64,000 nucleotides of DNA from Schmidtea nova (lineage: Eukaryota). Position numbers and translations under genes: made by a program. The DNA lies in the NCBI GenBank assembly GCA_044892505.1, contig CM097884.1:11346001-11410000 (forward strand). Reading direction: 5' to 3'. The notes beneath the pieces were generated by a model. The model was not told the origin of the DNA. It saw only the letters and a program-made list of their open reading frames with translations, and made no database searches. Shown here piece by piece: positions 4,825 through 42,231 of the stretch. Position 1 is the stretch's first letter; every line of letters begins with the position of its first letter.

Positions 4825-4984
4825 GTAAAATTATTTTTCATTCTTTCATTAAATTTTATAATCAAATTTTATAATATTATTTAGTTTTATATAATTTTTT
4901 ACAAAATTTTAAAAAAATTCAAATTTTTCTTGAAAAGAATTATTAAATTGCAACTGACAATATAAATTTTTGGTTATCCTATAA

Positions 4985-5510
4985 CAGTGATTCTCAACCT
5001 TTTTTGTCGTGGCATTGTAACTATAAGATAACTTTATAAGAATTTTACTTACCCATAATACACTGTTAAATAGTTTATGATAATAATTTTCAATGTAAAA
5101 TAAAATAATATGTACTACAAAGACAACAGAATGTTTATTGAGTGATTAATTACAAATTAATTATAATAATACATTTATTGTGCAATTTGAGCTTGATGAT
5201 TTTAGATAATTTCATTTAAAATTGGTCGTAAAAATGATAATGCCACTCTCATTTCGTCATCTACATTTAAAAGTCTAGATCTTTTTTCGTTATTATATTG
5301 GTTAATGCTGAAAATCCGAATTCGCGCAAAAAAGATGTAGAAAATTGTAATAATATTTTTAAAGCTTTGGCTATTATGGGATAATTGCATCCAAAATGAA
5401 TTAATTGAATCTTCCGAATGTTTTAAAGTTAAATCTTGATTATTAAAAAGTGAAATTAGTTCTTCCTCTTCATTCATAGTTAAATCATATACATATGTAT
5501 CCGTTATCAC
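4985..5510 (-). mobile_element. hAT (Buster/Charlie-like) transposon 3' remnant with terminal inverted repeat
   Basis: CAGTGATTCTCAACCTTTTTTG at 4985 is a Buster-type TIR; minus-strand FWMQL...KRSRLLNVDDEMRVALSFLRP matches the Buster/FAM200-type transposase C-terminus. Confidence 0.75.
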
Positions 5511-16030: not shown

Positions 16031-16115
16031 AATTATTGCTGACGATATTGGCGTTATGTTGGTTGATCTAGATTCTAGATCAACCAACATAACGCCAATA
16101 TCGTCAGCAATAATT
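16031..16115. repeat. Perfect 85-bp palindrome (42-bp arms, 1-nt spacer)
   Basis: 16031-16072 is the exact reverse complement of 16074-16115. Confidence 0.95.
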
Positions 16116-16158: not shown

Positions 16159-16674
16159 CTATAAGGTATTGAATGATGGAATTTTTTGTCTTATTTCCCA
16201 ACACAAAATATGGATCCCTTTTATTATTTCATTATTTTGTGTTAGTAATGGCTGATTCAACTTTACTTCCAATTTTCCAATGATATTCAATACGTTATGC
16301 GTCATTGATTTAATATTTTTTGTTGTTGGCTTTATTTTCGCCTTTTCCAGTCTCGTTAAAAGACTTGCCGATACTATACTGTGACTTGAGCCTGAATCCA
16401 ATAACGCTTCTACTTTTCGTTCATTAAACTGTATGGCTACTCTGGGTTGCTTTCCTCCTAATTCTATTGTCATCAATGCGTAATTACATGGTAACCCCAG
16501 CATGTTCTTTCTTTCAATTTCGGCATTTGATGGTTCAATCTTTTCTAGTTCAATTTGAATCTCATCAACTGGCTTCATTTCTCTCAAGTTTTCACTTGGG
16601 TATATTGGAGCTGTTGGTATAAATGTCGGTGTGTACCATTTAGAAAGAGTATCAATTCTGGTTAGTTTTGGCAT
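16159..16674 (-). pseudogene. Element C retropepsin (aspartic protease), downstream of env
   Basis: RVAIQFNERKVEALLDSGSSHSIVS...IIGKLEVKL; same frame as the env tail ORF (16822-17040), separated by one TAA. Confidence 0.9.
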
Positions 16675-16821
16675 TAATTCAAGAAAGACCCTGGATTCGG
16701 GTTCTATTCTCCTTTTTATTATGCTCCTTCGAAAAGACTCTTGCTCTGATCTACCGCCATTGTTCTCATTATTATGGCCATTATTTCTCTCATCGTAGTC
16801 GCATAGTAATTCTTCACTTTT

Positions 16822-18659
16822 TTAATCATTTCTCAATTGTGCTCGTACATTTTCTATTTCTTTATATTGATGATTTGTGATGAAAAATCGAGCCAAAAAT
16901 GGAATACAGCCAATAATCATTTTCCATGACCATCCGGAAATTGTATATATTCTATGAGCTGATAATACTTGCGACATTATTACCTTTACCGTTACTGCAA
17001 TTACATAAATGCCAATTAAACCTGCACATGCTTGTCCCAAAAAACATAAATTTACCCCAAATCTTTTCCATTGTTTTATAAGTAGCTCTTTTAAAATGAT
17101 CGGGTGTTAGCAAATATTCGTAATTAACTTTTCCTTCTCTATTCAGCAATATCGTGTCAATCATTTCTGAAATCACCCGTTCCTTTTTTGACGGAAATAA
17201 CAAATTTCTCTGGGCTTCTTCAATGTTTTCGCTGGCATACAGCCCATTTGTGCCATTTTATTCATTGATGTAAAATTTATTAAATATTCAAAATTCGTCA
17301 ATTCCAATTTGTCCGGTGTTCTTACTCCTCGGTAATCTGGTAGCACTATCCACGAATCTTGTGCTAAGCGATATAATGGAGCTAATAATCGATTACATTG
17401 TAAAGTTTTTGTTTAACTTGTTCCTCCAGCAATATTCGGGTTATAGGTTCCATAAATCGTAGTTTCCCGCCAACACTTACTGGCAATTCATTTGTACATT
17501 TCTCATATTTTGCGATTTTTACTGTAATTTCTTTGCATCGGTAACTGTATAGCGCTTCTCCAAAGATTCTGGCAAATACACCATTTTCTGATATTACCAT
17601 GGGTGCTACTAAATTTGGGTTTGTAATCGCCATCGCCATTCGATTTCGAAATATTTCTTTATTCAATTTACAATCGTTCAAGATCATTTTTCTATATATG
17701 TTCTCCATGGTATTTTGGCTAAAATGAAATAAATAATCAATTTTATTATTAAAATAATGAGTTAGTTTGATATCATCCCTGTTGATTCTCGTTTTCGCTT
17801 CATGTACAATCGTTTTTGTCAGATATATATCCTTTGTAATTCGTTACATAGACTGTTTGACCATATTTGCTCGTAATCTCTTTTTTAATAAAGCGCATGC
17901 TGTTCGTTGGCAAGGTTGACATTAAAACCGTTGCCGTTTGTCTCGTCCAAACTGGAGGTGATCTGAATGTGTTATTCGGTTTTTAAATTACGTTAAAACT
18001 GTCTGGTCTCTCCTTAAACTGCTCTCCGGTTAATTCCTTGAAATTCATTGATTTTAAATGAGCTAAGTTACATATATTGGTTTTAACATCGTAAACAAGA
18101 ATTGATCCTCCCGTGTGACAACTAGTTTGTTTCATGTTACAAAATGGATGAGTTTGTAGTTTTCCGGTATCATCATCAAAAGATCCTTCAAACATTCTCA
18201 ATTCTGTTAAGTATTCCTCTATTACCACTGTTTGTTTAATTACTTTCACATTTATTCACCTTCACAGTCACCATCTGATTTCATCACTCCCTTCACAACC
18301 AACGTTTCTCGAATTTGATGATTCAGTTTCGCTTTTAATCGAATTTCAGGACTGATTTTTAATTCTCCCGTTTGAAAAGCTGTTAAGCAATTTTCTGGCA
18401 ATACATCCACCGGTCGTGGAATGGCGTGCATTTTGATTAATGACGTATGGCTCTATTTACCACAGAAGAATACAAAAGTAGTTCGTTTCACAATGCATTC
18501 TCTAACTTTGGTACGCTGTAAATCTGACTCTTGATACACATGGTATTTTACTTCGTTTTCAATCTTTAATTTTCGAGGGTATGCGTTAGGGCCCTCTGAC
18601 ATGTCAACCACTGAGTAAACTTTCCCCATTTCTGTTTTTGAGCAATTGTATGCAACTAA
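16822..18659 (-). pseudogene. env: Element C envelope glycoprotein, chuvirus/herpes gB-like (class III fusogen), with stops and frameshifts
   Basis: AYNCS...YQESDLQRTKVRECIVKRTTFVFFCGK*SHTS; DGDCEG; DCKLNKEIFRNRMAMAITNP; GEALYSYRCKEITVKI...CTNELPVS...FMEPITRIL; IWGKFMFFG + GLIGIYVIAVTVKVI (TM) + IYTISGWS; same motif order as I recall for chuvirus-type G proteins. Confidence 0.85.
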
Positions 18660-20459
18660 GGACGTCGTTTGCGTAATAACTGCACATAGAATAATCATCA
18701 TAAACATTACCCAAGGGAATATCATCGTTTTACTCAGTTTTAAACTTACTCTCTCGTTCAATTGCCTTTGAAGTGAATACTCATCTTCTGTTTTCTTTCT
18801 TTTCTTTATTATAGATAAATTTAATGCTTTCCACCCTCCAAGCTCTCTTAGCCAATTAATTAAAGACTCATTTAATAGTTGAGCCACAATGTCAATTAAA
18901 TTATCAAGCTTGTCTGACTTTGTAAATGCGTGAATACCGATCTCTGAAACAACGTAGGTTATGATTGTTAAAACTATTTCTTTATCAATCCCATTTTTGA
19001 TCACATCTTCTATTACTTCGTATTTACAAAATTTATCCTCTTTGCCAAATTTCCGCACTACTTCTGGAAGTCTGATTTTCACTTCTTCTACTATTCCTTT
19101 CAATTCCTCTTCCGTTTCTGTCTTTATTTTTAGAATTGGATATACGATTTTAACTAAATTTCTTATTACATTACTTGTTTCGTCAACTTCCTGCTCTAAT
19201 TTTATTAAATTTTTCTTCATCTCATAAAATGTTCTAGGTTTCGTATTCTCATTTTTTATTTCTTCTTTTTCAATATTCGTCTCTTCGATAATTGTCGTTT
19301 CTGCTGTCTGAGCATTTTTATTAGTCCCCTTTTCACCATCAACATCAGTAACTATTTCAATTTCGCTTTCCTTTATTTGTTCTGTTTGCCCATCTGTATC
19401 TGAAAATTCAACTTTGTCAAGCATTTTCGAATTAAATTCTTCATTTGCTATTATTCGATTTATTAAATACCCTTGGCTTCCATTAGTGCTTAAATACCCA
19501 TATTCATCCAATTCCTGTGGCACGTATCCACAGTCATATAAATATTCACCGTCATCAAGTTCTTCACCTTTATATCTCAACAATATAATTCCATTTTTAC
19601 CTAACATTTCCGCAGCTCTTTTACGTACTTTTCGAACTTTTGTACACCAGTGTTCCTCTACATACTCCGCTTTCCCAATATCTTCATATTCTATTGCAAT
19701 TGTTAACAAATTTACCTCAACTCTATCTTTTCTAAGCTCTTTACCCAATTTTCTCATTATTCTCTTTAAACATTTTCTATATCCCGTTCTTCTAAACAAA
19801 TAAGGTCGTATCACATTAACAAGTTCTAATTTCTCTTCTTGGCTAAATTCAGATTCCTCAATTAATTTTACTATCTCATTAATTTCATTTTCGTCACCAA
19901 TATATAAAACATCAGATAGCTCCCTTACTTTTTCCATCGGTTCATTTTTTATAATTTCACAGTTACTCATCATACTGGCTATTTGTAATTCATTTTTATT
20001 TCCTCGTATAAAACCACAGTCTATTAAATATGCATCGTTTTTTAAATCTCTATTCTTAAACTTTAATTTGACTACCCAGCCTTCATATTTCTCTCTTAGT
20101 CTCTTTTTAAAATCTTTTGCACAATGATAGGCTTCATAACGACAAGTAATTACATTTTTATCATTTTCATTAACAACATCAATAAAAATAAAATCTAACC
20201 ACTTATTTTCCCGAAAAGATTTTCCAAATTTTCTCATCAATTCTTTAATTTCATCTCTATTTGTTACATTTATTTGATAATAATTAGCACACAAATTAAT
20301 CACGCCTTTCAATTTTCTCATACTCAGCGACATTTGACTCAGGTTTTTAATCGATACCAATATTTTAGATGATTCTTCCACACTAGCTTCTAGTAATTTC
20401 TCAAGTCTTTTCATCATCAATGTAGCTTTTTCACTTTCTAAATCTTCTGTTGTACTCAC
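18453..20459 (-). CDS. Element C 668-aa ORF: two (helical + ubiquitin-like) repeats, acidic linker, Bcl-2-like domain, TM/signal peptide, env N-terminus
   Basis: Ubl-like LKFKNRDLKNDAYLIDCGF and LRYKGEELDDGEYLYDCGY; BH2-like LLNESLINWLRELGGWKAL; hydrophobic MIFPWVMFMMIILCAVITQTTS; then env AYNC. Confidence 0.75.
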   Translation of the reverse strand: MSTTEDLESEKATLMMKRLEKLLEASVEESSKILVSIKNLSQMSLSMRKLKGVINLCANYYQINVTNRDEIKELMRKFGKSFRENKWLDFIFIDVVNENDKNVITCRYEAYHCAKDFKKRLREKYEGWVVKLKFKNRDLKNDAYLIDCGFIRGNKNELQIASMMSNCEIIKNEPMEKVRELSDVLYIGDENEINEIVKLIEESEFSQEEKLELVNVIRPYLFRRTGYRKCLKRIMRKLGKELRKDRVEVNLLTIAIEYEDIGKAEYVEEHWCTKVRKVRKRAAEMLGKNGIILLRYKGEELDDGEYLYDCGYVPQELDEYGYLSTNGSQGYLINRIIANEEFNSKMLDKVEFSDTDGQTEQIKESEIEIVTDVDGEKGTNKNAQTAETTIIEETNIEKEEIKNENTKPRTFYEMKKNLIKLEQEVDETSNVIRNLVKIVYPILKIKTETEEELKGIVEEVKIRLPEVVRKFGKEDKFCKYEVIEDVIKNGIDKEIVLTIITYVVSEIGIHAFTKSDKLDNLIDIVAQLLNESLINWLRELGGWKALNLSIIKKRKKTEDEYSLQRQLNERVSLKLSKTMIFPWVMFMMIILCAVITQTTSLVAYNCSKTEMGKVYSVVDMSEGPNAYPRKLKIENEVKYHVYQESDLQRTKVRECIVKRTTFVFFCGK

Positions 20460-20589
20460 AATTTTCGTTTCAGTTTCTTACATGTCTTGCTGCGATCCAT
20501 ACATCATGTGATTATCCAATTCATCATCGGATTCAAACTTGGACATTAGACGATCAAACGTCGACCCTTTTATTTCACTTGATCTTCAA

Positions 20590-21854
20590 TATTTTCGTTG
20601 AAATCATCTGATTGTACATAAGCAACATTGCCTGTTTTCATTTTATCATTTTGGAATCTAATTGATTTTTTCAATATAGGTTTCTGAAATTTGTCGACAT
20701 TTCTCGGGTATGATCTAGCCATGTGTCCATAGCCTCTACAGGAATGGCATTGAATTTGACCTTGAAGGTTCGCTCTATCTCTTTATGGGGATGGTGAAGT
20801 TGATGAAAACCTCGATCTAGCAAAACAATTCCGTGAGACATGTCCATTTCTTCCACAATTTTAGCATTGTACATTATCATTATTTCGCTGATCCTTAATA
20901 TTCATTTTATTAAAACTTTTCTCACCGTTACCTTTCATCCACTGCGGCCACATTCGTTTTGGGCTTCGTTGAACATTATTTTTAGACCAGCATTGAGTGC
21001 TGTTATGTCCCATCCTTTGACAATAATCACACTGGATTGGAGTTGGACTTTTTGGAGATCTATTTTTGAGATGATGTCCTATCCGTTGACAATGGCTGCA
21101 TTGGAATGGCCTCTTCTTTTCATCAATTTGAACATTTGTTAATTTATTTGGCTCAAATCTTTGGTGATAGACTAATTGATTGCTGCAGCCGATTGTTTCT
21201 GACTGGAGTTATGGATCTTTCTCTGGGTTCATTTATGATGGCAAACGATTCTGATTTTGGCTGTGAGCTTTTCAAATTCAACTCAATTTTCATCGCCTTT
21301 TTGATCAATTCATCAAAGTTATTGAAGTCCACATAACATAATGCCTTTTTGATCTCCTTTTTGACTCCCGTTAAGAACTGGTCTTGTAACAATTCCTTCA
21401 CCTGCTTTGCCACTTCAATCTGTTCCGGTTTTACTTCGAATGCTTTCTCTGTAAGAGTTGTCAAGTGGTACGCAAATTTACTTACCGATTCATCTGATTT
21501 TTGCACTCGGTTATAGAACTTGTGCCGCATTATTCGTTTTATATCCCCTCCAATTAGTTTCGCGGCTAAGGCATTTTTCAATTTCATCCAGTCACTTGCA
21601 ATTGTTCTTTTGTCAATTTGTTGCCAGGCTTCTCTTGCTGCTCCCTTTAAATATAGTGGCAGCCTTTGCACCAATGTCGCTTGGCTCCATCCGTAGGCTG
21701 TGGCATACATGTAGTAATCCGCCAAAAAATCAACGAATTCCACCGGATCGCCTCCGTATTGGTTTACTGACAGTTTTTGGCAGCTAGCATAGTCATTGCC
21801 ATTTCCGTTGCTGGTAGACATGGGCGTGTCATCATGATTGTTTGAGTTACTCAT
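20590..21854 (-). pseudogene. gag: Element C gag (capsid plus four CCHC-type zinc knuckles), frameshifted near 21155
   Basis: YGGDPVEFVDFLADY...QRLPLYLKGAAREAW; CSHCQRIGH, CDYCQRMGHNSTQC, C*NCGRNGHVSRNC, CHSCRGYGH. Confidence 0.85.
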
Positions 21855-22337
21855 TTTGGTTTCTGGTTGTCTGCTACTTCGTAATTCGTAAAATGGTCGG
21901 TTTGGTACAACTTTTACTCTTCTAAATTTTAATATATCAATTATAAAATTTACCTTTTATTTAAATTTTCAACAGTAAAAATCTTTCCACAAGTTTCCAA
22001 CAAACTTTTTCTAATCCTTGATTCAATTTACCGACTCTGCTCACGTCGGAATTTAACAAAATTTTCTCGATAAATTAATTTTCAGTTTTCAACAATAAGC
22101 CACCCACTTTTGATCAATTTCACAATTTCAAAACTTTATAAATTTGACAAATAACTTTGAATAAATTTCACCGACTCTGTTCACGTCGGAATTTTACTGC
22201 AACTTTCAATTTCTTTTCGACAATAAATATCTAATTTCTTTTTGGAAATGCTTCACCGACTTTAAACACGTCGGAATTTATCAATAATTTTCTTTTAATT
22301 CTTTATTATTTTTTTTCAACAAATTTTCACCGACTCT

Positions 22338-22356
22338 GATCACGTCGGGCTCACCA
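22338..22356 (-). promoter_or_regulatory. Element C primer-binding site, tRNA-Trp-like
   Basis: TGGTGAGCCCGACGTGATC located 4 nt after the LTR-terminal CA; tRNA-Trp PBS consensus is TGGTGACCCCGACGTGAT. Confidence 0.8.
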
Positions 22357-22360
22357 AATA

Positions 22361-22934
22361 TGTTGGGTTATTAACGAGCAGTCGGTAATATCTGACTCCT
22401 GTGTTCTCTTTTAATCACGAAAATAAATGAAACCCAACACAATAACTTTATATATATTTTCAAATGAACAACAACACTTTTTATCACAGAAAGTTACTAA
22501 TGCTCTGCACTCTTCCGCGTGAGGGTAGAACACCCAATGGGATATCTCCCTCTCTGGCACGCAAGAAGATTAAATTCAACTTCTATCTTTGGTTTCTCTA
22601 CACGTTCCTCAGAATAGCTTTTAGTTGTTGTTTATTCTTTCTGTTTATTCTTTCTGTTTATTTCTTTCTGTTTATTCTTTCTGTTTATTCTTGAAATTTA
22701 TCTTTGACCACTTTGGCGTGTGCCGAAATTTTGACTTGCCTTTTAGAGTGATTTTTCGATTGTTTCTGTCACACCTTAATGAATCTGTCAATTACAAAAT
22801 AAAGTGGAAGTTGCCGCTAAGTGGATTTGCGGCTTCTTTCCCCGGGGCACCCTTAAATTTTTCCATTAACTTTAATTAATCGATTTGCAGATGCCACGGG
22901 TTTCCCATATCGCTCGGGTTTCCTACTAGCTCAG
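22361..22934 (-). repeat. Element C 5' LTR, PBS-proximal half
   Basis: Ends ...AACCCAACA next to the PBS; contains a 13-bp AATAAA-bearing array and the start of a 17-bp minisatellite that continues at 42232. Confidence 0.65.
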
Positions 22935-23064
22935 TGTCACGACAATAAATAAGACACGTTTTTAAAATATGTATTTTTATCAAAAACTGCTTATTTAAAC
23001 AAAAATGTTTAAAGATGAATAAATCGATTTAGAATTAATTAGTAATTAATTCTAAATTGTCACA
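22935..23064 (-). repeat. Element B 3' LTR
   Basis: 130 bp, TGT...ACA, adjacent to the PPT. Confidence 0.9.
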
Positions 23065-23069
23065 TCCGT

Positions 23070-24400
23070 CCCTATCCTCGACTTGGGTTTCTTCAAGTCG
23101 ACTGAGGTAATGGAGTTTGTGTTCTCGGTACCCTTCTTGTATTGGATTTTGAATTCGTAGTCTTGGAGTAGGAGGCTCCATCTTGAGATTTTACTGTTCC
23201 TGATTTTTAGACCCGCGAGCCATTTTAAGGGCTTATGATCCGTTTGGATTACGAATTTGCGACCGTATAGGTAATAACGGAATTGCTCCAGTGCGTATAC
23301 TATCGTGTACAGTTCTTTCTCGATTGTTGACCATTGGATCTGGGGTTCCGAAAGTTTCTTGGATTGGAACGTGATCGGGTGTTCCTTTATCTCTATAATT
23401 TGGGATAAAACAGCTCCTATGACTTGGTCGGACGCGTCGGTTTTCACGTAAAATGTCTTCTTGTAATCTGCCGCTATGAGTACTGGCGCTTCTGTCAGTG
23501 ATCTCTTCAGGTCACTAAAGGCTTTTTCACTTTGTTTGTCCCATTTTATTCGGTTTGAGGCTCCATTCTTTAGTTTCTCGTTCAGATAATCGGTTTTCTT
23601 TGATAGATCTTTGATATGGCTTCGGTAGTAGTTGATCATACCGAGGAATCGTCGTAAATCCTTCTTTGTCTTTGGTTTGGATGCTCTTTTGATTGCATCA
23701 ATTTTTTCCGATAGCGGTGACACCTCTCCGTTTCCGACTAGTTTCCCTAGGAACTCGACATCATTAGTTTGCATTTCTTTGGATTTAGGGTTAGATTAGC
23801 TCTATGTAGGGTCTCTAAAACTGTCTGTAGTATTCGGATATGTTTCTCGGCTATTGAGGATTAGATAATGATAACTGACGTTTCTGATACGTTTTGGAAT
23901 AGTTTATCCATCATTCTTTGGTAGTAAGCTGGAGCATTTTTGAATCCGAAACTCATCCTTGTGAATTGGAATAATCCGAATGGTGTTGTAAACGCACTTT
24001 TTGGTCTGTCTTTATCTTTTATCGGTATCTGATAGTATCCTTTCGTCAGGTCTATCGTGTTGATGATCTTCGCGTTTCCTACTGAATTGATTACCTTTTC
24101 GATTTCTGGCATCGGATAACTATCGAATATTGTGGCCGAGTTTTTCTTCCTATAGTCCTGAACTAACCTCAGATTATCATTTTTCTTTACGAAAAGAGCT
24201 GGACTTGCCCATGGGCTATTTGACTTTTCGACGATTCCTAGCTTGAGTAGGCTTTGAATTTCTTCGTTCATATTATCTCTAAGCGAATGCGGAAGCTGGT
24301 ATGGTCTTTGATTGATTGGTGTTTCGTTCGTGAGATTTATGTTGAATTCTGCTTCGTTAGTCAGGCCTGGTAGAGAAGAAAACACGGTGCGGTATTCGTC
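23070..24400 (-). pseudogene. pol: Element B RT and RNase H; the YxDD region appears deleted
   Basis: SPWASPALFVKK..LRLVQDYRK, IDLTKGYYQI, FTRMSFGFKNAP; FYVKTDASD, WSTIEKEL, IQTDHKPL; reads ETSVIII* where YxDD is expected. Confidence 0.9.
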
Positions 24401-24524
24401 GACAAGTTGTTTGTATGGTCTTGACGCTCGCTTCCGGGTTTATTGTAACAGTTTCGGTTTCGGTCCTGCCTTCGTCGGCGATCAGCGCTTGTATGATTGC
24501 TTCTTCTCGGTGATGCCACTTCAG

Positions 24525-25767
24525 TTAAAGGTTTACATGAAAGGCCCGCAGTCGTTTTCTAGTTTGGCTGGTGTCTACCATATAGTTGACATCACTTATT
24601 TTGTTGACTATTCTGTATAGTCCGTGCCATCCCGATAGTATTTTTGTCGAAGATGTCGGTAAGAGGACGAGAACTTCCTTGCCTATGTCGAAAGTTGTGG
24701 TTCTTGAGTTCTTGTCATACCATTTCTTTGATGTATCTTTAGCGGCGTTGTCTCTTTGTTGTTTAATCTCCATTACTTGGTTCAGTTTATCGGTTAGGTC
24801 GAGTACAATGTATTGATTGATGTTTCTCTTTCCAGGATATTCTGCATTTGTCTATATAACATCGATAAGTGCCCTTGGACCTGGTGGCCGTACAGTAGCT
24901 CAAAGGGGCTGAATCCGATATTCTCGTGCGAACTCGACCTGTAGGCAAAGTAGAGATATAGCAAGTACGTGTCCCAATCCTTCCCTTTGGAATCGGTTAG
25001 TAATCTTCGGAATCTTCGTTGAATCTTTCACATATCAAGTTAGTTTGCGGGTGATATTTGGAGGTTTTGATGTTCGTTGTTCCTAGGAGCTGGTATACCT
25101 GTTTCATAACCTCACTCATGAAATTTGATCCTTGGTCTGTTAGAATTTCGGACGGAATACCCATTCGGCAGAAAAAATGTCACATTGCTTTTGAGACCGT
25201 TTCTGCCCTCATATCCGGTATCGCTATCACCTCTGGGTATCTGGTTGCGTGGTCTATAATTGTCAAAATAAATCTGTTTCGATCGTTTGATAAATTTAAC
25301 GGCCCCACTATATCCATGGTGACTCTGAAAAAGGGCTCGCCAATCGTGGGGGTTCTTATCAAAGGTGCTCTATGTGCTTTTTCTATTCGTCTTGATTTCT
25401 GGCACTGTGGACAGCTCTGGCACCATCCTTGGACGTCTTCTATGATGTTTGGCCAAAAGAAGAATTTTCTCAGCTTGTCTCTGGTCTTCTCATTTCCCAG
25501 ATGTCCTGATAGTGGGATTTCGTGGGCTATTTTCAGTAGTTTTTCTCGATATTGTTTGGGAATCACAGGCTTTTTTGTTGCGTTTTCTGTGTACATCAGT
25601 ATACCATTTTCTATCGACAGTTTGGTACTTTGGCATTCTTTTTTTGCTTCGTCGAAGTACTTGTACAGGAATTCGTCATCCAGTTGAGATTTGTGTAGGT
25701 TGATCATATTTATGTCGAAGATAGATTGATCATCTTCGGAGACTGTTTTCCCTTTACTTCCTTCCAT
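24525..25767 (-). pseudogene. pol: Element B integrase, located upstream of RT
   Basis: HEIPLSGHLG...CQSCPQC (HHCC), TMDIVGPL, IIDHATRYPE; GPY/F-like WHGLYRIVNKISDVNY. Confidence 0.9.
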
Positions 25768-25773
25768 GTATTT

Positions 25774-26506
25774 CTAGTAATTTGGTGCGTTGAGTGTATC
25801 GTTGTCGAATATGTTCTTTGGGTTTGGGTTTAGTATTTGTTCTTCTTTATCGGCTACTATTCTCGTCGCTGAATGATTTATATTGTTGGATCTGGTGATT
25901 GCCTCGCAAAATTCGTCTAGATCGTTTCCTAGTAATACTCTGTGTTTACTACTCATGATCAGTGCTTCTATCGTGACCGGCACATTCTTGACTGAGATAT
26001 TTAATCTGGCGATTGGGGCTTCGGTTGAGTTCCCGTAGGCCAACACGACATTCACGGTCTTGTCTACGTATTTTGACTGTTTCACGAACATCGTATGAAC
26101 AACCGTCGATGACGCTCCCGTGTCTCTGAACATTTTTATCGGCTTGCCTGCTATGATTCCGTTAAATATATATATTTCTTAGGAATACTTACGTGTTTCA
26201 GCTCGACTGCATTTGCGTTTCGTTTGGAACATTCTCTAGCTAGATGTGCTGCACTTCCACATATGTAGCATTGTCTTGGTCCTCTGTTTGGGTCTGGGAA
26301 TTGCCTGGGTCTCCACTGTGGGGTTTTCGGAGTATCAGCTTCGAACTTGTGTGCGCTTTCGTATCTTTCGGCCACTAACACCATCTTTAGGACAACTGAA
26401 TTGTCACTTTCTTCAAGCCATGTCTTGATCCGTTCATTTATGTTTCGCATAAACTGTTCTTCTATGATAAGGTTTTTGATGTCCTGCATCTCTTTTGCGT
26501 CCCTTG
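25774..26506 (-). pseudogene. gag: Element B gag C-terminus (CCHC knuckle) and protease
   Basis: CYICGSAAHLAREC; FRDTGASSTVV...VLLGND. Confidence 0.9.
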
Positions 26507-42090: not shown

Positions 42091-42101
42091 AGTGACGCCA
42101 T

Positions 42102-42231
42102 TGTTACGACAATAAATAAGACACGTTTTTAAAATATGTATTTTTATGAAAAACTGCTTATTTAAACAAAAATGTTTAAAGATGAATAAATCGATTTAGA
42201 ATTAATTCGTAATTAATTCTAAATTGTCACA
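42102..42231 (-). repeat. Element B 5' LTR
   Basis: 130 bp, matches 22935-23064, adjacent to the PBS. Confidence 0.9.

Follow-up and report, generated by a model that had tools for sequence, protein, structure and literature searches.

What is the unit of about 160 residues that occurs twice ahead of a Bcl-2-like domain in a retroelement of Schmidtea nova, and what does it do for the element that carries it? The element lies on the minus strand of a 64,000-nucleotide stretch (GenBank assembly GCA_044892505.1, contig CM097884.1, positions 11,346,001 to 11,410,000; hereafter the window, numbered from its first letter). Our reading, held with a probability of roughly 0.5, is that one accessory module stands here in two copies, both old and diverged, within the single polyprotein (Gag-Env-Pol) of a compact Gypsy element of Burro type, and that the module is likely a docking adaptor for a host protein, not a conjugated tag or a proteasome shuttle. 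The unit is repeated, sits between the zinc knuckles and the Bcl-2-like domain, is spread over element families, is under purifying selection as judged from substitution rates, and has lost both the terminal Gly-Gly (GG) and the Ile44 residue of ubiquitin.

An old tandem repeat

A single minus-strand frame (18453-20477) contains both motifs quoted in a preliminary description of this locus, which had proposed a unit of about 160 residues present twice. Numbered from the ATG at 20417, residues 1-165 and 166-330 align locally with a score of 98, a value reached by none of 2000 shuffles (33.3±5.8, maximum 70), and the claim is borne out. The period is approximately 160 residues, with 29 of 155 aligned residues identical between the copies (19%); the repeat is genuine and old. 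Copy 1 spans approximately 20417-19968 and copy 2 approximately 19940-19479. The range first given, 19512..20430, therefore holds for the repeat itself but not at its lower bound, which cuts off the last strand of copy 2. The described order, with the repeats N-terminal to the Bcl-2-like domain, also stands, although an acidic linker of about 85 residues separates copy 2 from that domain. Natural intact copies of the element read 3,401 codons in one frame across the region, which makes the ATG at 20417 internal.

Distribution, duplication and selection

The module was found in all 11 element families sampled in the window's genome, as two units in nine and one unit in two, and directly after the zinc knuckles in every family examined. 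A reverse transcriptase (RT) tree contains three well-supported clades: the window clade, with five families of at least 86% RT identity and two units; a second clade at 52-57%, also with two units; and a third at 46-48%, with one. In a tree of 32 units, which left out the partial rows P0005, P0010, P0011, P0014, P0017 and P0018, the window clade's first and second copies form separate supported groups (96/87 and 98/96), and the duplication therefore predates the radiation of this clade. Generic multi-ubiquitin proteins matching the ubiquitin half alone (P0008, P0013, P0015 and P0016) were dropped from all unit alignments. One duplication common to both two-unit clades has support of 84/77. 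The approximately unbiased (AU) test rejects a clade-specific duplication with just the 12 window-clade units held together (p=0.02) but no longer does so once P0007 is added (p=0.28); because the outcome hinges on P0007, there is no proof of one ancient duplication common to both clades.

Between the two closest families, the ratio of nonsynonymous to synonymous substitution rates (dN/dS) is 0.12, 0.18, 0.44 and 0.09 for the four half-units, compared with 0.01-0.04 for Gag, Env and RT. The dN of the module is about 3-8 times that of the Gag capsid region. These rates indicate that both copies are under purifying selection. They bear on a very improbable alternative: that the second copy is baggage without a function, or that the ubiquitin-like domain would serve only to mark a cut for host deubiquitinases, as it does in the polyproteins of some pestiviruses. 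Two families thrive on one unit and identity between the copies is low, as baggage would allow; against this, both copies appear selected, with dN/dS well below 1, and are kept in nine of the 11 families, which largely refutes it. Cleavage by deubiquitinases needs GG after the last strand, and 0 of 32 units have it there (the GG of one flagged row sits inside the fold).

The units also share residues across their two halves. An Arg in the last helix is present in 28 of 32 units, and 25 combine it with a Glu-Tyr motif in the ubiquitin half; the four units without the Arg also lack the motif. This co-occurrence hints at an internal interface, and at no more than a hint because the rows are related.

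The ubiquitin-like half

The ubiquitin-like halves lie at 19968..20201 (copy 1) and 19479..19724 (copy 2). Copy 2 is predicted to be a four-helix bundle packed on a ubiquitin-fold domain without GG, and both the structure model and fold searches give its C-terminal half a beta-grasp fold, with low confidence in the region of the last strand (predicted local distance difference test, pLDDT, below 50 at residues 143-148 and 154-160). A profile of the unit searched against 177,635 PDB sequences matched the ISG15 C-domain (E=6e-5) and ubiquilin-2 (E=5.4e-4). In the ESM Atlas, copy 2 gave only leads below 0.85, two of them ubiquitin/Rad60-SLD clusters. The window's own units, searched singly, had no Pfam match, and copy-1 rows of sister families match PF00240/PF11976 weakly. 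Word-index protein searches returned no match at E<=0.001, which is weak evidence owing to their length windows. By fold and profile the units belong with the ubiquitin family, and they lack the terminal Gly-Gly of a conjugatable modifier. The earlier proposal of integral ubiquitin-like domains, neither ending in GG, carried by a mobile element thus holds for copy 2 by model, fold searches and profile matches, and for copy 1 by homology.

At the position of Ile44, copy 1 has Lys and copy 2 has Arg; a basic residue stands there in 10 of the 12 window-clade units and a hydrophobic one in 18 of 32 units overall. The two copies in the window thus lack the hydrophobic residue that Rad23/Dsk2-type proteasome-binding domains have at this position. 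The suggestion that the module is a proteasome or chaperone adaptor is weakened because this position is basic in both copies and in most of the clade. Docking on the proteasome or a chaperone in the manner of Rad23, Dsk2 or BAG1 is accordingly improbable, and neither a UBA nor a BAG domain turned up in the polyprotein.

The same surface is relevant to an unlikely, though somewhat less improbable, role as a structural part of Gag. Placed where retroviruses have late domains, the module could help particles to assemble or bud by acting as a ubiquitin mimic that is built in. Gag-ubiquitin fusions can stand in for late domains in retroviruses, the element has a fusion glycoprotein, and the position right after the zinc knuckles is constant in the families examined. 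However, the Ile44 surface is the one read by most ubiquitin receptors and is basic in most window-clade units, the module evolves several times faster than capsid, and its copy number is one or two.

No host donor gene was found: the 150 best PF00240 matches are canonical ubiquitins, and the helical partner is present at none of the 30 loci read, diverged or spliced host domains being beyond the reach of this search. Most of these 150 matches lie within long frames, apparently of a BEL/Pao-like ubiquitin-fusion kind. This multicopy BEL/Pao-like element carries a near-canonical ubiquitin in frame ahead of Gag; of five loci (L226, L229, L231, L233 and L240), four retain the terminal GG, and the element's ubiquitin is preceded by Hsp70-like and other host-gene fragments, labelled by eye.

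The helical half

The helical halves occupy 20202..20417 in copy 1, predicted to be a four-helix bundle by homology to copy 2, and 19725..19940 in copy 2. The copy 2 model has four helices in 71 residues (2-14, 17-28, 34-47 and 55-71), with pLDDT of 86-93 over residues 1-70. The death fold (DD, DED, CARD, PYD) is a six-helix bundle of about 85-95 residues, and the idea that the helical halves are death-fold-like is not supported because the model shows four helices in this length. [quoted passage not shown] Among the 25 of 30 families listed for Pfam scans with 22 helical halves, Med26 and LEDGF do not appear, and the ESM Atlas had no usable match to the helical half of P0009. Fold searches of copy 2 are uninformative for this half because the ubiquitin half filled their lists.

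One candidate relationship deserves separate consideration. The helical half may be a diverged TND of the LEDGF integrase-binding type that, with an AT-hook in the linker, would anchor the element's RNA or its integration complex on transcribed chromatin, in place of the host tether borrowed by lentiviruses; we regard this as possible but doubtful. LEDGF itself carries AT-hooks. The TND family includes the LEDGF/HRP2 integrase-binding domain (PMC9987994). Its members are right-handed five-helix bundles. The helical half resembles these in being a small bundle of about 75 residues with comparable helix lengths and loops, as compared by eye, and in its weak in-register profile matches. In a profile comparison, helices 2-4 line up with those of host TNDs without a shift (P=0.014), and the local score of 16.2 against host TNDs was reached in 0 of 150 column shuffles. 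A host LEDGF-type domain outranks 99.7% of 699 decoy windows, aligned over profile positions 10-61. Of 16 family representatives, 9 have an AT-hook core in the stretch from the module to Bcl-2/Env, although it is absent from the window's clade.

Several controls argue against this relationship. Reversed sequences did about as well (14.8 against 16.2; 13.65 against 10.17), with p=0.002 for reversed TNDs and p=0.0003 for host TNDs against the decoy windows, and end-to-end scores gave the same picture; the similarity is thus no better than that of reversed-sequence controls. One decoy from the Bcl-2 region (13.2 bits) beat every TND, and hhalign probabilities are just 0.5-5%. Within the elements themselves, the beginning of the Bcl-2-like domain gives the helical profile a match of 7-13 bits as well, which we read as amphipathic noise. 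The copy 2 model has four helices where TNDs have five; the 14-residue third model helix could be two fused helices, which is relevant to this count. TND identity is thus a lead, not a result. A broader version, in which planarian-type enveloped retroelements encode their own LEDGF-like chromatin tether (a TND-type bundle with a ubiquitin-like domain, duplicated in most families, followed by an AT-hook), is rather unlikely. If true, it would steer integration to transcribed chromatin or hijack the host elongation-factor network without the host cofactor that lentiviruses need, and with a TND in the helical half the element would be a retroelement that supplies its integration tether itself.

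The host genome has its own genes of these families. Two are of LEDGF/HRP2 type (PF11467; L242:1477-1680 and L244:1426-1690), the first confirmed against solved LEDGF domains. TND genes are expanded: about 28 Elongin-A-like frames follow one another in tandem, spaced at roughly 1.2 kb (C1:216.19-216.25 Mb), and several intronless IWS1-like paralogues lie at C1:27.97-28.89 Mb, both sets identified by eye and with PF08711.

The carrier element and its surroundings

A search of the window's genome, with 127 scored of 2,451 candidates, gave 128 matches to the element at 73-100% identity, many within open frames of 3,401 or 3,402 codons. In a search of sequencing runs, no RNA run was listed as carrying the sequence; four runs of one study were listed, with shares of 0.24-0.33. 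A natural intact copy measures 16,969 bp, has 854-bp long terminal repeats (LTRs) with 99.6% identity to each other, and shows a 4-bp target duplication. Its 3,401 codons encode in one frame Gag, zinc knuckles, two units, the Bcl-2-like domain, a class III fusion glycoprotein (PF24664, E=1.6e-87), protease, RT, RNase H and integrase. Intact relatives have the LTRs, Gypsy order of Pol domains and class III envelope protein (Env) between Gag and Pol of GAG-ENV-POL HSV/gB-type errantiviruses (Ty3/Gypsy). They also extend about 450 residues past integrase, ending in a hydrophobic stretch (L034:3-2264), and have an extra 483-codon open reading frame without a Pfam match ahead of the 3' LTR (L034:2661-4109).

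The window copy is about 90% identical in DNA to the intact family and is broken into six reading-frame pieces; the whole polyprotein cannot be made from it. On the minus strand it starts with a 5' LTR remnant (22361..22595; 82-85% identity to the LTR of the natural intact copy) and a primer-binding site (22339..22356), presumably tRNA-Trp-like, that is common to the six element families checked. Gag with zinc knuckles (PF03732; 20555..21956) has frameshifts near 21165 and 20560. Beyond the two units follow the acidic linker (19200..19478), which has the AT-hook core in sister families, and a diverged Bcl-2-like domain (18831..19181) whose PF00452 match (E=0.0045) is short of the curated cut-off that sister families pass. 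The class III Env (16800..18659, lower bound approximate) matches PF24664 in four separate frames, with a stop at 18453-18455 and frameshifts. An aspartic protease remnant (16255..16440) comes last, as the copy ends near 16255, without its own RT or integrase.

Other repeats surround this copy. Four repeats of about 52 nt occupy the element leader (22016-22366), each similar to the sequence at and after the primer-binding site, and a perfect 42-bp inverted repeat with a 1-nt spacer (16031-16115) lies about 140 bp past the truncated end. A second broken Gypsy element (23052-26489, minus strand) is directly upstream of the LTR remnant, and 22932-23064 recurs at 42099-42231 (97%). Two Gypsy gag-pol units that are nearly identical lie between 26507 and 40608, bordered by three identical repeats of at least 300 nt that are spaced at 6,645 bp; these units are either a young tandem pair with a common middle LTR or an assembly duplication.

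A possible docking adaptor

We propose a docking adaptor for a host regulator because the unit is selected, faster-evolving, GG-less, two-domain and placed at this position in the polyprotein. A hydrophobic segment between Bcl-2 and Env (18660..18737), recognized by hydropathy and followed directly by the Env profile, is likely both the Bcl-2 tail anchor and the Env signal sequence. Cleavage of this internal signal would leave Gag, both modules and Bcl-2 on the cytosolic side, anchored by the segment; alternatively, the element's protease would free them. The last-helix Arg and the Glu-Tyr motif may form an internal interface that makes each unit rigid, while the faster-changing outer surface would work beside the Bcl-2-like domain and bind a putative host regulator, most likely one that acts in ubiquitin-dependent defence or in the control of cell death.

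Several observations weigh against the docking adaptor. The AT-hook core in over half of the representatives points to a nuclear over a cytosolic role, and membrane topology and cleavage are deduced from hydropathy alone. The dN/dS estimates each come from 72-81 codons, dS is saturated in several of them, and in more distant pairs they range over 0-0.76 with much saturation. Three of 32 units hold the Arg without the Glu-Tyr motif, and the covariation amounts to about two independent losses among related rows. Finally, a single-sequence model of both copies was unusable (pLDDT 39), and the alignment-based model covers copy 2 only.

Known relatives and implications

Planarian Burro elements carry a Ubi2/SUMO-like domain (PF11976) ahead of BCL-2, with Env in frame between Gag and Pol (PMC6431247). 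The element described here is like these Burro/GYPSM1 giant Gypsy-like elements in its single polyprotein, Gag, zinc knuckles, ubiquitin-like domain before BCL-2-like and in-frame Env; the Burro Env has matches to mononegavirus-type fusion proteins (PMC6431247). It differs in size, at 17 kb and about 3,400 residues against more than 30 kb and 4,873-5,140 (PMC6431247), and no Pfam match to MATH, BIR, ankyrin or dUTPase was found in the frame of the natural intact copy or in the next open reading frame, so that the giant size with MATH/BIR/ankyrin cargo is absent. Because it is half-sized and lacks MATH, BIR and ankyrin matches, we consider it a compact Burro relative and not one of Burro1-4. 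The ubiquitin-like domain is doubled here with a four-helix bundle before each copy, neither of which is mentioned in the Burro section of PMC6431247. Ubiquitin-like cargo is thus already published for Burro elements, and the doubling and helical partner are added detail. We found no description of either in the literature searched, although Grohme 2018 and Lee 2026 may already cover them.

Gene order is also shared with Smed_errantivirus_1, a GAG-ENV-POL HSV/gB-type errantivirus (PMC13524379); over one Env stretch the two agree at 76 of 94 residues by a count made by eye, or about 80%. The main text of that paper does not contain "ubiquitin", "Bcl" or "Burro", and leaves the cargo undescribed. 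The accessible portions of PMC8532177 and PMC13238120 hold nothing on domains. Compared with integral (type II) ubiquitin-like domains (the SUMO-like domains, SLDs, of Rad60/NIP45, the ISG15 C-domain and the ubiquilin ubiquitin-like domain), identity is 7-26% with no single closest donor, and the domains here are basic at the Ile44 position and always stand behind a four-helix bundle.

The ubiquitin-like cargo of Burro-type elements is therefore half of a conserved two-domain module, duplicated and selectively kept in most families, and not a lone domain. As such, it is a defined, expressible unit for structural and pull-down work. The inhibitor of apoptosis (IAP) region of Burro1 has an anti-apoptotic role and helps planarian stem cells, according to Lee et al. 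2026 as cited in PMC13465017. Since anti-apoptotic cargo of a related element is reported to help planarian stem cells, accessory domains of this kind can matter to the host.
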